This document shows positions 1-37,277 of a stretch of DNA of 64,000 nucleotides, in pieces. Source of the DNA: Escherichia coli (GTDB taxonomy: Bacteria > Pseudomonadota > Gammaproteobacteria > Enterobacterales > Enterobacteriaceae). Each line of letters opens with the position of its first letter. The first letter of the stretch is position 1. The translations under genes and the position numbers were made by a program. The notes beneath the pieces were generated by a model. That model was given only the letters and a program-made list of their open reading frames with translations. It was not told the origin of the DNA and searched no databases. The stretch lies in assembly GCF_003790525.1 (NCBI RefSeq), contig NZ_CP033635.1; one strand, given 5' to 3'.

Positions 1-2309
<2,309 letters not shown>

Positions 2310-2401
2310 ACAACGCCGAAGATGTTTTGGCGGAAGAGAGAAGATTTTCAGCCTGATACAGATTAAATCAGAACGCAGAAGCGGTCTGATGAAACAGAAT
2401 T

Positions 2402-2521
2402 TGCCTGGCGGCCGTAGCGCGGTGGTCCCACCTGACCCCATGCCGAACTCAGAAGTGAAACGCCGTAGCGCCGATGGTAGTGTGGGGTCTCCCCATGCGA
2501 GAGTAGGGAACTGCCAGGCAT
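2402..2521 (+). rRNA. rrfG: 5S ribosomal RNA
   Basis: 120-nt sequence TGCCTGGCGGCCGTAGCGCGGTGGTCCCACCTGACCCCATGCCGAACTCAGAAGTGAAACGCCGTAGCGCCGATGGTAGTGTGGGGTCTCCCCATGCGAGAGTAGGGAACTGCCAGGCAT matches E. coli 5S rRNA; follows the 23S 3' end after a ~92-nt spacer. Confidence 0.97.
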
Positions 2522-12524: not shown

Positions 12525-12547
12525 GGCTTAAGTAGCAAGTTACTAAG

Positions 12548-12577
12548 CGGAAGAGGGCGACCTCTTCCGCTTTTTTC
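12548..12577. terminator. rho-independent terminator between convergent grcA and eamB
   Basis: GCGGAAGAGG-GCGA-CCTCTTCCGC hairpin followed by TTTTTT. Confidence 0.85.
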
Positions 12578-19659: not shown

Positions 19660-20615
19660 TGAAGCAACTTTGGTTTGCCATGTCATTAGTGACAGGTAGC
19701 CTGTTATTCTCTGCTAACGCCTCGGCCACTCCCGCGTCCGGGGCGTTATTACAGCAGATGAACCTGGCCAGTCAGTCACTGAATTACGAGCTGTCATTCA
19801 TCAGCATCAATAAACAGGGTGTTGAGTCTCTGCGTTATCGACATGCACGCCTCGATAACCGTCCTCTTGCACAATTGTTGCAAATGGATGGCCCGCGCCG
19901 GGAAGTGGTACAGCGCGGCAATGAGATCAGCTATTTTGAACCGGGACTTGAACCGTTCACGCTTAATGGCGATTACATTGTTGATTCTCTGCCATCGCTC
20001 ATCTATACCGATTTCAAACGCCTTTCTCCTTACTACGACTTTATCTCCGTCGGGCGCACGCGTATTGCTGATCGTCTTTGCGAAGTTATTCGCGTGGTTG
20101 CCCGAGATGGTACACGCTACAGCTACATCGTGTGGATGGACACCGAATCGAAATTACCGATGAGGGTTGATCTCCTTGATCGCGATGGTGAAACGCTGGA
20201 ACAATTTCGCGTGATTGCTTTTAATGTCAATCAGGATATCAGCAGCAGTATGCAGACGCTGGCGAAGGCAAATTTGCCGCCGTTGCTTTCTGTTCCTGTA
20301 GGTGAAAAAGCTAAATTCAGCTGGACGCCAACCTGGTTGCCACAGGGTTTTAGCGAAGTTTCCAGTAGTCGACGTCCGCTACCGACGATGGACAACATGC
20401 CTATTGAATCACGTCTCTATTCCGACGGATTATTCAGCTTCTCGGTAAACGTTAACCGCGCTACGCCATCGAGCACCGATCAGATGTTGCGCACCGGACG
20501 CAGAACCGTCAGTACAAGCGTACGTGATAACGCCGAAATCACCATTGTCGGTGAACTGCCGCCGCAAACGGCGAAACGCATTGCCGAGAATATTAAGTTC
20601 GGGGCAGCGCAATGA
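19659..20615 (+). CDS. rseB: sigmaE regulatory protein RseB
   Basis: 318-aa ORF with signal peptide (MKQLWFAMSLVTGSLLFSANASA); start overlaps the rseA stop by 1 nt (TAATG). Confidence 0.95.
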   Translation: MKQLWFAMSLVTGSLLFSANASATPASGALLQQMNLASQSLNYELSFISINKQGVESLRYRHARLDNRPLAQLLQMDGPRREVVQRGNEISYFEPGLEPFTLNGDYIVDSLPSLIYTDFKRLSPYYDFISVGRTRIADRLCEVIRVVARDGTRYSYIVWMDTESKLPMRVDLLDRDGETLEQFRVIAFNVNQDISSSMQTLAKANLPPLLSVPVGEKAKFSWTPTWLPQGFSEVSSSRRPLPTMDNMPIESRLYSDGLFSFSVNVNRATPSSTDQMLRTGRRTVSTSVRDNAEITIVGELPPQTAKRIAENIKFGAAQ

Positions 20616-21091
20616 TCAAAGAGTGGGCTACCGTCGTCTCCTGGGAAAACGGGCAGGCGCTGGTTAGTTGTGATGTTAAAGCCTCATGCAGCAGCTGCGC
20701 TTCACGCGCCGGTTGCGGTAGCCGCGTGTTGAATAAACTTGGCCCGCAAACCACGCATACCATTGTCGTACCCTGTGATGAACCGTTAGTGCCGGGGCAA
20801 AAAGTAGAATTAGGAATCGCCGAAGGCAGCCTGCTTAGCTCCGCATTACTGGTTTATATGTCGCCGTTGGTGGGACTATTCCTCATCGCTTCACTATTTC
20901 AGCTACTCTTTGCTTCAGATATTGCAGCATTATGCGGTGCGATTCTCGGTGGCGTTGGTGGATTCCTGATTGCACGTGGCTGCTCTCGAAAGTTTGCTGC
21001 CCGGTCTGAATGGCAACCGATCATCTTAAGCGTGGCCTTGCCGCCTGGCCTTGTGCGATTTGAAACATCTTCGGAAGACGCGAGCCAGTGA
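20612..21091 (+). CDS. rseC: sigmaE regulatory protein RseC
   Basis: 159-aa ORF, N-terminal cysteine cluster (CSSCASRAGC) and two TM segments; ATGA overlap with rseB. Confidence 0.93.
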   Translation: MIKEWATVVSWENGQALVSCDVKASCSSCASRAGCGSRVLNKLGPQTTHTIVVPCDEPLVPGQKVELGIAEGSLLSSALLVYMSPLVGLFLIASLFQLLFASDIAALCGAILGGVGGFLIARGCSRKFAARSEWQPIILSVALPPGLVRFETSSEDASQ

Positions 21092-21287
21092 TTTCACTGG
21101 CTTTGTTGCATTTTGCATAACAAATGCGAGGACGTTTCCAGATACCCAATCCATACGGTATGAACATTTCCTCGCCTCAATGTTGTAGTGTAGAATGCGG
21201 CGTTTCTATTAATACAGACGTTAAGCTCAGAACAGCGACTTCTAAAAGCCTGGTTAACCGGGCATTAAGGCACAATAATCATACTTT

Positions 21288-23087
<1,800 letters not shown>

Positions 23088-23102: not shown

Positions 23103-24077
23103 ATGGCGAATATGTTTGCCCTGATTCTGGTGATTGCCACACTAGTGACGGGCATTTTATGGTGCGTGGATAAATTCTTTTTCGCACCTAAACGGCGGGA
23201 ACGTCAGGCAGCGGCGCAGGCGGCTGCCGGTGACTCACTGGATAAAGCAACGTTGAAAAAGGTTGCGCCGAAGCCTGGCTGGCTGGAAACCGGTGCTTCT
23301 GTTTTTCCGGTGCTGGCTATCGTATTGATTGTGCGTTCGTTTATTTATGAACCGTTCCAGATCCCGTCAGGTTCGATGATGCCGACTCTGTTAATCGGTG
23401 ATTTTATTCTGGTAGAGAAGTTTGCTTATGGCATTAAAGATCCTATCTACCAGAAAACGCTGATCGAAACCGGTCATCCGAAACGCGGCGATATCGTGGT
23501 CTTTAAATATCCGGAAGATCCAAAGCTTGATTACATCAAGCGCGCGGTGGGTTTACCGGGCGATAAAGTCACTTATGATCCGGTCTCGAAAGAGCTGACG
23601 ATTCAACCGGGATGCAGTTCCGGCCAGGCATGTGAAAACGCGCTGCCGGTCACCTACTCCAACGTGGAACCGAGCGATTTCGTTCAGACCTTCTCACGCC
23701 GTAATGGTGGGGAAGCGACCAGCGGATTCTTTGAAGTGCCGAAAAACGAAACCAAAGAAAATGGAATTCGTCTTTCCGAGCGTAAAGAGACACTGGGTGA
23801 TGTGACGCACCGCATTCTGACAGTGCCGATTGCGCAGGACCAGGTGGGGATGTATTACCAGCAGCCAGGGCAACAACTGGCAACCTGGATTGTTCCGCCG
23901 GGACAATACTTCATGATGGGTGACAACCGCGACAACAGCGCGGACAGCCGTTACTGGGGCTTTGTGCCGGAAGCGAATCTGGTCGGTCGGGCAACGGCTA
24001 TCTGGATGAGTTTCGATAAGCAAGAAGGCGAATGGCCGACAGGTGTGCGCTTAAGTCGCATTGGCGGCATCCATTAA
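23103..24077 (+). CDS. lepB: signal peptidase I
   Basis: 324-aa ORF; catalytic Ser region (IPSGSMMPTL) and conserved GDNRDNSADSRYWGFV box. Confidence 0.97.
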   Translation: MANMFALILVIATLVTGILWCVDKFFFAPKRRERQAAAQAAAGDSLDKATLKKVAPKPGWLETGASVFPVLAIVLIVRSFIYEPFQIPSGSMMPTLLIGDFILVEKFAYGIKDPIYQKTLIETGHPKRGDIVVFKYPEDPKLDYIKRAVGLPGDKVTYDPVSKELTIQPGCSSGQACENALPVTYSNVEPSDFVQTFSRRNGGEATSGFFEVPKNETKENGIRLSERKETLGDVTHRILTVPIAQDQVGMYYQQPGQQLATWIVPPGQYFMMGDNRDNSADSRYWGFVPEANLVGRATAIWMSFDKQEGEWPTGVRLSRIGGIH

Positions 24078-24091
24078 TAGCCCATCTTCGT

Positions 24092-24122
24092 TCACGTTGT
24101 CGCCGTTATGGCGACAACGTGA
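24092..24122 (+). terminator. hairpin downstream of lepB (probable terminator)
   Basis: 13-bp perfect stem TCACGTTGTCGCC-gttat-GGCGACAACGTGA followed by ATTATTTAT. Confidence 0.7.
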
Positions 24123-24223
24123 ATTATTTATGAGATAAATCTCCCGTGGCTAACGACATCCCCCGTCGTTGTGTATAGAATATTCCCCCGAAGTTTAAGG
24201 TTGGCACCTCCAGGTTGCCACGG

Positions 24224-24315
24224 CACACGAAACAGCGTTGGTCCCCATATACCGGTAAACTGAAACTGCAGCGAAGCAGTTAGCAGAACCATGTATATCA
24301 GGTCTGTTTCGTGTG
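24224..24315 (+). promoter_or_regulatory. rnc 5' leader long-range stem (candidate RNase III autoregulatory structure)
   Basis: 12-nt arms CACACGAAACAG (24224-24235) and CTGTTTCGTGTG (24304-24315) are exact reverse complements in the untranslated leader upstream of the rnc ATG. Confidence 0.55.
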
Positions 24316-24319
24316 CTGA

Positions 24320-25932
<1,613 letters not shown>

Positions 25933-25943
25933 GAGTAACTCCG

Positions 25944-26672
25944 ATGGAAGGCTGGCAGCGCGCATTTGTCCTGCATAGTCGCCCGTGGAGCGAAACCAGC
26001 CTGATGCTGGACGTCTTCACGGAGGAATCGGGTCGCGTGCGTCTGGTTGCCAAAGGCGCACGCTCTAAACGCTCTACTCTGAAAGGTGCATTACAGCCTT
26101 TCACCCCTCTCTTGCTACGTTTTGGCGGGCGTGGCGAAGTCAAAACGCTGCGCAGTGCTGAAGCTGTCTCGCTGGCGCTGCCATTAAGCGGTATCACGCT
26201 TTACAGCGGTCTGTACATCAACGAACTTCTCTCCCGCGTACTGGAATACGAGACGCGCTTCTCTGAACTCTTTTTCGATTACTTGCACTGCATTCAGTCA
26301 CTTGCAGGTGCCACTGGTACGCCAGAACCCGCGCTGCGCCGCTTTGAACTGGCACTGCTCGGGCATCTGGGCTATGGCGTCAATTTTACTCATTGTGCGG
26401 GTAGCGGCGAGCCGGTAGATGACACCATGACGTATCGTTATCGCGAAGAAAAAGGGTTTATCGCAAGCGTCGTTATCGACAATAAAACGTTCACCGGAAG
26501 GCAGTTAAAAGCGTTAAACGCGCGGGAATTTCCTGACGCAGACACACTGCGCGCCGCGAAACGCTTTACCCGCATGGCGCTTAAGCCGTATCTTGGCGGT
26601 AAACCATTAAAGAGCAGGGAACTGTTCCGGCAGTTTATGCCTAAGCGAACGGTGAAAACACATTATGAATGA
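25944..26672 (+). CDS. recO: DNA repair protein RecO
   Basis: 242-aa [44 protein letters not shown]... matching RecO. Confidence 0.95.
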
Positions 26673-27811: not shown

Positions 27812-27900
27812 TTATAAAGTAAAACCCCCGAACTGGTAAGGAACGGGGGTTTTACTTTACAACTTTAATTTTGTGCAGCACACGATTCCAACGGAAATGA
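27812..27900 (-). ncRNA. ohsC: OhsC antitoxin sRNA (approximate boundaries)
   Basis: Minus-strand segment between the bidirectional terminator and a candidate -10 (RC of 27899-27904 = CATAAT). Contains the antisense of GTGCAGCACACGATTCCAA (27873-27891), an 18/19 match to the shoB 5' UTR copy at 28122-28140. Ends are not determined. Confidence 0.5.
27818..27856. terminator. bidirectional rho-independent terminator (acpS on + strand, ohsC on - strand)
   Basis: AGTAAAACCCCCG-aactggtaaggaa-CGGGGGTTTTACT palindrome; both strands give a G/C stem followed by UUUUACUUUA. Confidence 0.8.
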
Positions 27901-37093: not shown

Positions 37094-37277
37094 AGTGGCT
37101 CATTCACCGACTTATGTCAGCCCCTTCGGGACGTGCTACATAAAATTCGAATGACGCACAACAAGGTGCCTGCCGTCCAACTTCTGATATCAGCGTAGCT
37201 ATATCAACCCTCGGGCGAAACGTCGAGTTAGGCACCGCCTTATTCCATAACAAAGCCGGGTCATTCCCGGCTTTGTT
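37094..37277 (+). ncRNA. glmY: GlmY small regulatory RNA
   Basis: Starts ~12 nt after the -12 element (AGTGGCTCATTCACCGACTTATGTCAGCCCCTTCGGG...) and ends at the AAAGCCGGG-tcatt-CCCGGCTTT hairpin plus TGTTGTAT (37252-37277); no plausible ORF. 3' end approximate. Confidence 0.8.

Follow-up and report, generated by a model that had tools for sequence, protein, structure and literature searches.

The inverted repeat analyzed here sits in the 5′ UTR of rnc, between the stop codon of lepB (24077) and the ATG of rnc (24350), in a stretch of 64,000 nucleotides of Escherichia coli DNA that we call the window and to which all positions refer. According to the ORF list, the genes around the repeat are ordered lepA, lepB, rnc, era, recO, pdxJ, and acpS. 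The coordinates of the leader, its structural parts, and its flanks are collected in Table 1, together with the Rfam matches to AsrC, ohsC, GlmY, and the 23S/5S rRNA, which are known E. coli features.

Table 1. Genes, RNA elements, and structural parts of the rnc leader in the window.
Feature	Position	Strand	Basis
3′ 2.3 kb of 23S rRNA and 5S rRNA	1–2519	+	Rfam
AsrC, antisense RNA of rseC	20576–21406	−	Rfam, 504.6 bits
lepB	23103–24077		ORF list
Promoter-like site of the rnc operon: −35 ACGACA, 17-nt spacer, −10 TAGAAT within TATAGAAT	24153–24181	+	Consensus scan
rncO, whole post-transcriptional operator (160-nt 5′ UTR and first 18 rnc codons)	24190–24404	+	Full-length RF00552 match; MG1655 identity
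Stem-loop I, small 5′ hairpin	24202–24220	+	Rfam consensus structure; MFE of 129-nt fragment
Stem-loop II basal helix, 5′ arm (holds CACACGAAACAG)	24221–24235	+	Repeat, folding, Rfam structure
Stem-loop II interior: conserved part beside the basal helix, lineage-variable irregular hairpin distally	24236–24303	+	MFE and Rfam structures
Stem-loop II basal helix, 3′ arm (holds CTGTTTCGTGTG)	24304–24318	+	Repeat, folding, Rfam structure
Linker, A/U-rich, predicted single-stranded, with the translation initiation region (AAUUGUUGACGCAUUUAUUUAUUGGUAUCGC)	24319–24349	+	Rfam structure and centroid
rnc coding sequence (RNase III, 226 aa)	24350–25030	+	ORF list; annotated rnc in E. coli genomes
Stem-loop III, rnc codons 7–14	24370–24389	+	Rfam structure; centroid fold
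era	25027–25932		ORF list
recO	25944–26672		ORF list
ohsC antitoxin sRNA	27816–27892	−	Rfam, 101.7 bits
GlmY	37094–37241	+	Rfam, 145.2 bits

A direct string check confirmed that CACACGAAACAG (24224–24235) is the exact reverse complement of CTGTTTCGTGTG (24304–24315), with a gap of 68 nt, and a repeat search extended the perfect match to 13 nt (24223–24235 and 24304–24316). With the addition of G24222–U24317 and C24221–G24318, the 13 perfect pairs become a 15-bp helix (24221–24235 paired with 24304–24318) that closes an irregular 98-nt hairpin directly 3′ of stem I. By calculation, the 15-mers form a duplex of −24.4 kcal/mol and the 12-mers one of −17.5 kcal/mol. Across the window, five perfect inverted repeats reach 12 nt or more with arms no further than 150 nt apart, where 0.58 would be expected. 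Besides the one in the rnc leader, they comprise the hairpin of the lepB terminator, a terminator at 12545–12572, a repeat in the ohsC region, and a hairpin that closely follows the GlmY match on its 3′ side. The one at 12545–12572 is a perfect 12-bp, GC-rich hairpin (AAGCGGAAGAGG-GCGA-CCTCTTCCGCTT) followed by TTTTTCA, as is typical of intrinsic terminators.

The arms find each other regardless of how much of the transcript is folded. Partition functions were computed in six transcript contexts: three began at +1 and ran to the end of stem II, to +511, or to the end of rnc, and the others were the complete UTR, the span of the Rfam match, and a transcript reading through from lepB. Each of the 12 arm pairs formed with a probability of at least 0.97 (mean of 0.99 over the 15 pairs), and sequestration of the arms in other pairings, for which all six contexts were inspected, was not seen, the probability of a competing partner being at most 0.08 for every arm base. 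When 24190–24404 is folded, the minimum free energy (MFE) and centroid structures both join the arms to each other, with a z-score of −2.5 relative to shuffled sequences. The centroid of this span recovers stems II and III and the greater part of stem I. In the MFE structure, stem II is recovered and stems I and III are partly paired elsewhere, and the MFE of the 129-nt fragment consists of stem I and stem II. The Rfam structure laid on the window sequence has an energy of −52.7 kcal/mol. In both the MFE and the Rfam structures, the distal part of the E. coli stem II adds approximately 20 pairs to the hairpin. The preliminary description, made from the letters of the DNA, had proposed a 12-nt inverted repeat with arms 68 nt apart in the rnc leader, able to close a large structured domain; the first statement is confirmed, and the second is supported by the pairing probabilities and by the place of the arms in the Rfam structure described below.

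The domain closed by the repeat belongs to a curated RNA family. The Rfam model of rncO (RF00552) matches 24190–24404 on the plus strand over its full length (model positions 1–214 of 214) with a score of 258.8 bits, compared with a gathering score of 43 (E = 7e-62), and gives the same result when the whole window is scanned. In the RF00552 consensus structure, the arms correspond to the 15 pairs at the base of stem-loop II (model positions 32–46 and 114–128). The matched segment is identical to K-12 MG1655 (NC_000913.3, 2704223–2704009, minus strand), the genetic background of the original work on rncO, and the larger interval 24078–24420 has 100% identity to many complete E. coli genomes and was found in 5425 of 5426. 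The RefSeq annotation beneath the match reads "rnc: ribonuclease III". The rnc 5′ UTR has been described as nucleotides 1–160 (PMC10037077), which therefore places the rnc +1 at 24190, the first base of the RF00552 match. Nucleotides 1–129 of the same UTR have been used as an in vivo RNase III-cleavable reporter module (PMC10037077); transcript nucleotide 129 corresponds to 24318, so that the module ends on the last base of the 15-bp helix.

On this evidence, the inverted repeat almost certainly forms the base of stem-loop II in rncO, the post-transcriptional operator already known from the E. coli rnc-era-recO operon. The element in the window is rncO itself, base for base in its K-12 form, and not a mere relative: it shares the position, the full-length model match, the layout of stems I, II, and III, and the sequence of the operator described by Bardwell et al. 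(1989, EMBO J 8:3401) and Matsunaga, Simons & Simons (1996, RNA 2:1228), from which it shows no difference. In the relatives, by contrast, the length of the distal stem II departs strongly, in either direction, from that of the E. coli form, around which the consensus of the RF00552 model appears to be centered. The features of rncO membership that can be computed, namely model score, genomic position, predicted stem layout, and conservation, are all present, and no evidence against the identification was found in the sequence, folding, or family comparisons. The earlier suggestion that the repeat matches the RNase III-cleaved autoregulatory leader of rnc-era-recO is thus supported by the full-length match of 258.8 bits and by the MG1655 identity. 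The functional element exceeds the two arms: it takes in stems I and II, the single-stranded linker, and, within the first codons, stem III. Identifying rncO here adds no new biology.

The conservation of the leader was analyzed by scanning a collection of species-representative genomes with the conserved linker motif, searched as plain DNA. The scan returned 75 loci, nearly all from Enterobacteriaceae; two chance matches to the pattern that lack an rnc leader, in a 'Bacteroides' MAG (L037) and a Balneolaceae MAG (L061), were left out. The resulting alignment (A1) holds 71 leaders, the window and 70 other Enterobacteriaceae, of which 60 distinct sequences were used for pair counts; as a sample drawn by a pattern from the same leader, it reaches the Enterobacteriaceae only. 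The helix closed by the repeat is conserved throughout: on the Rfam structure, 98.7% of the basal-helix cells in the 60 distinct sequences are paired, and the MFE folds of leaders from 16 species all consist of stem I followed by the same basal helix. RF00552 was matched by all 20 scanned loci from other species (15 genera), at 159–231 bits. Sliding the 3′ partners by 1–3 columns lowers the pairing of the whole 30-pair structure (stem I, the base of stem II, and stem III) from 95.1% to 35–45%.

Covariation gives the basal helix genuine but slender support, since most of its conservation is at the level of sequence. One pair shows a clean compensatory change (C–G in 37 sequences, A–U in 22, broken in 1) and pair 24222/24317 alternates between G–U (42) and A–U (13); 10 of the 15 pairs are invariant and so uninformative for or against pairing. 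Stem I has compensatory changes on both sides in 4 of its 7 pairs across genera, and stem III is invariant across genera. Within the coding region, the fraction of the majority base at third (synonymous-site) positions in 65 Enterobacteriaceae rnc genes is 0.978 for codons 1–18, versus 0.748 for codons 19–226. These near-frozen synonymous sites in 24350–24404 indicate a constraint at the RNA level on stem III and its flanks, and they agree with the reach of RF00552 into the rnc coding region. The linker (24319–24349) is also highly conserved, with only a weak Shine-Dalgarno-like GG, although its near-invariance in A1 arises partly by construction, the linker motif having supplied the search pattern.

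Upstream of the operator lie several features of the lepB–rnc junction. The promoter-like site in Table 1 is the candidate rnc promoter, to judge from its location, 8 nt upstream of the point at which both the Rfam model and the 160-nt UTR begin, and the TATAGAAT segment holding its −10 hexamer does not vary among 72 aligned Enterobacteriaceae rows. A conserved inverted repeat, AACGAC-N7-GTCGTT (24152–24170), overlaps the −35 hexamer and spacer upstream of TATAGAAT; its 3′ half is altered without compensation in a few genera, and it could be a protein-binding site or simply reflect conservation of the promoter. Directly 3′ of the lepB stop codon, a perfect 14-bp hairpin (16 pairs with extensions) at 24090–24124 is followed by the conserved AATTATTT. 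The sequence of its stem varies by genus while its self-complementarity is kept, which makes the hairpin the probable lepAB terminator, a short way before the rnc promoter. A match of this hairpin to mir-2001 (20.1 bits) is below threshold and explained by hairpin symmetry. The sole difference from MG1655 within 24078–24404 consists of four mismatched bases (24078–24081) directly after the lepB stop codon, which probably reflect a 1-nt indel or a local variant. A further 12-nt pair of 92% complementarity, 24078–24089 with 24382–24393, was taken as chance; the first of these segments precedes the start of rnc transcription, and the second makes up the 3′ side of stem III.

The analysis thus shows a real, conserved helix that dominates thermodynamically and forms part of rncO; cleavage of the leader by RNase III and the effect on mRNA decay are taken from the literature. 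There, an irregular hairpin in the rnc 5′ UTR is cut by RNase III itself, which leaves an unstructured, 5′-monophosphorylated end that is recognized by RNase E and leads to rapid mRNA decay, and rRNA precursors, when abundant, titrate RNase III and relieve the feedback (PMC3867540). The same account of autoregulation is given in PMC5371410, PMC10037077, PMC8708148, and PMC10582724, all of which cite Bardwell et al. (1989) and Matsunaga et al. (1996). Carried over to the window, the sequence of events would be as follows. In the nascent rnc mRNA (+1 at ~24190), the arms pair, 24221–24235 with 24304–24318, and RNase III would bind and cleave the leader hairpin, as reported for the identical K-12 sequence. 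Cleavage would strip the structured 5′ end from the message and expose a 5′-monophosphorylated, unstructured end, which would admit RNase E, possibly through the linker, a plausible entry region once RNase III has cleaved; the rnc-era message would then be degraded. Synthesis of RNase III, and of Era with it, would fall when free RNase III is abundant and rise when rRNA precursors titrate the enzyme.

Comparison among genera divides stem II into a constant and a variable part. Its interior, 68 nt long in E. coli, ranges from 16 to 92 nt in the 71 aligned leaders: 16–22 nt in Enterobacter, Klebsiella, Kosakonia, Yokenella, Trabulsiella, and Citrobacter koseri, 34 nt in Citrobacter youngae, 58–74 nt in Salmonella, most Citrobacter, and Phytobacter (a range that also includes Escherichia), and 90–92 nt in Raoultella. 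The leaders of Enterobacter, Klebsiella, and Kosakonia thus lack the distal segment, and Raoultella has an enlarged one. Kept everywhere are the 15-bp helix, a 2 × 2 internal loop (GC/GU), and 4–5 further pairs, UUGG(U)/(A)UCAG, for a total of ~21 helical positions. Such a length is close to the two helical turns that a dimer of bacterial RNase III covers. In its distal two-thirds, stem II is hypervariable between genera and unalignable between Escherichia, Citrobacter, and Salmonella, so that the RNAalifold consensus of 18 long-form leaders retains only the core of 15 bp and 5 bp. The leaders with short interiors still match RF00552, at 159–187 bits.

It is an even call whether the scissile bonds lie in or beside this conserved core (the basal helix, the 2 × 2 loop, and the 4–5 bp above it). 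Two considerations led us to place the cut there. First, the core is the sole double-stranded segment common to all genera. Second, a cut above an intact 15-bp helix would leave the 5′ end paired, unlike the "unstructured 5′ end" of the published account (PMC3867540). Published descriptions of the leader speak of an "irregular hairpin" (PMC3867540) or a "long stem-loop" (PMC10582724) and give no coordinates. Altuvia (2018) dropped the rnc sites from a refined RNase III set because of the transposon allele, and the supplements of Gordon (2017), looked up for cleavage sites, have no lepB–rnc entry. A stronger version of the argument, which we regard as possible but would not bet on, holds that the part of rncO recognized by RNase III is only the core of ~21 positions, with the scissile bonds within the arms; the distal two-thirds would be a dispensable, fast-evolving expansion, and the short leaders would be natural minimal operators.

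The most serious competitor assigns the arms a purely structural role, in which the basal helix serves as a clamp that holds the substrate together and RNase III cuts the distal, E. coli-specific part of stem II (24236–24303). The ~20 additional pairs of the E. coli form are long enough to be an RNase III substrate alone, and the published wording names only a hairpin or stem-loop, with no coordinates. The comparative data point the other way, since the distal part is missing in Enterobacter, Klebsiella, and Kosakonia and cannot be aligned among Escherichia, Citrobacter, and Salmonella, while the basal helix, the 2 × 2 loop, and the 4–5 bp are kept everywhere. Moreover, a 15-bp helix of −24.4 kcal/mol would retain the 5′ fragment after a distal cut, at odds with an unstructured 5′ end (PMC3867540). 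We therefore hold a clamp without cleavage in the arms to be a minority possibility, though one with a fair share of the probability; it concerns a detail of the mechanism and leaves the identity of the element as rncO untouched.

The other alternatives concern the nature of the element and fare much worse. A perfect inverted repeat is symmetric, and it could in principle act at the DNA level, as a protein-binding palindrome or a cruciform, or in a transcript of the minus strand, where the rncO model finds a weak match of 23.9 bits. This score falls short of the gathering score of 43 and is accounted for by the symmetry of the hairpin, and half-sites 68 nt apart, with a spacing that ranges from 16 to 92 nt between genera, do not fit a DNA-binding site. 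The only minus-strand ORF there, a hypothetical one of 92 aa (24128–24406), overlaps the rncO element. The pairs themselves also discriminate between strands: the G–U pair found in 42 sequences (A–U in 13) and the U–G and G–U pairs above the internal loop become C–A and A–C mismatches on the other strand. Pairs of this type fit a plus-strand RNA only, and the helix is therefore a feature of the plus-strand RNA and not a DNA palindrome, an alternative that we consider very improbable. It is likewise highly unlikely that stem II is a transcription terminator or attenuator governing read-through into rnc. It has the stability and the 5′-leader position of such a hairpin, but the 3′ arm is not followed by a U-tract (CUGAAUUGUUGACG), a terminator scan of the region reported only the lepB hairpin at 24090–24124 and none at stem II, and the literature places the control in mRNA decay, not transcription (PMC3867540, PMC10037077). 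Finally, a functionless chance repeat, in favor of which there is nothing beyond the fact that short inverted repeats can arise by chance, is refuted by conservation and the family match and retains a negligible probability: when the 160-nt leader was shuffled 5000 times with its dinucleotide content preserved, a perfect inverted repeat of 12 nt or more turned up in only 2 shuffles (analytic expectation 5e-4), the arms are kept, with compensatory change, in approximately 20 genera, and they belong to a match to a curated Rfam family.

Read as the plus-strand operator rncO, the element can be compared with two other leaders through which E. coli ribonucleases restrain their own synthesis. The pnp leader (the rpsO–pnp intergenic hairpin, used in PNPase autoregulation) resembles rncO in having a long irregular 5′-leader hairpin in which an RNase III cut sets off degradation of the message downstream (PMC5371410, PMC8708148). 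It differs in gene, sequence, and Rfam family, and its feedback needs PNPase to act on the RNase III-processed duplex, whereas in rncO the cutting enzyme is the product of the regulated gene. In the rne 5′ UTR, which mediates RNase E autoregulation, a ribonuclease similarly curbs its own synthesis via its own structured 5′ UTR (PMC3997798). In contrast to rncO, no double-strand cleavage is involved: the single-strand-specific RNase E recognizes the hairpin hp2 and cuts elsewhere.

In the case analyzed here, the key helix of a real regulatory RNA was located from sequence alone. The combination of a small invariant core and a hypervariable distal stem could guide the design of a minimal RNase III reporter or operator, an incremental gain. 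For the biology of the organism, rncO remains the classic example of a ribonuclease that sets its own level by cutting its own mRNA, and it also couples expression of the Era GTPase to RNase III activity.
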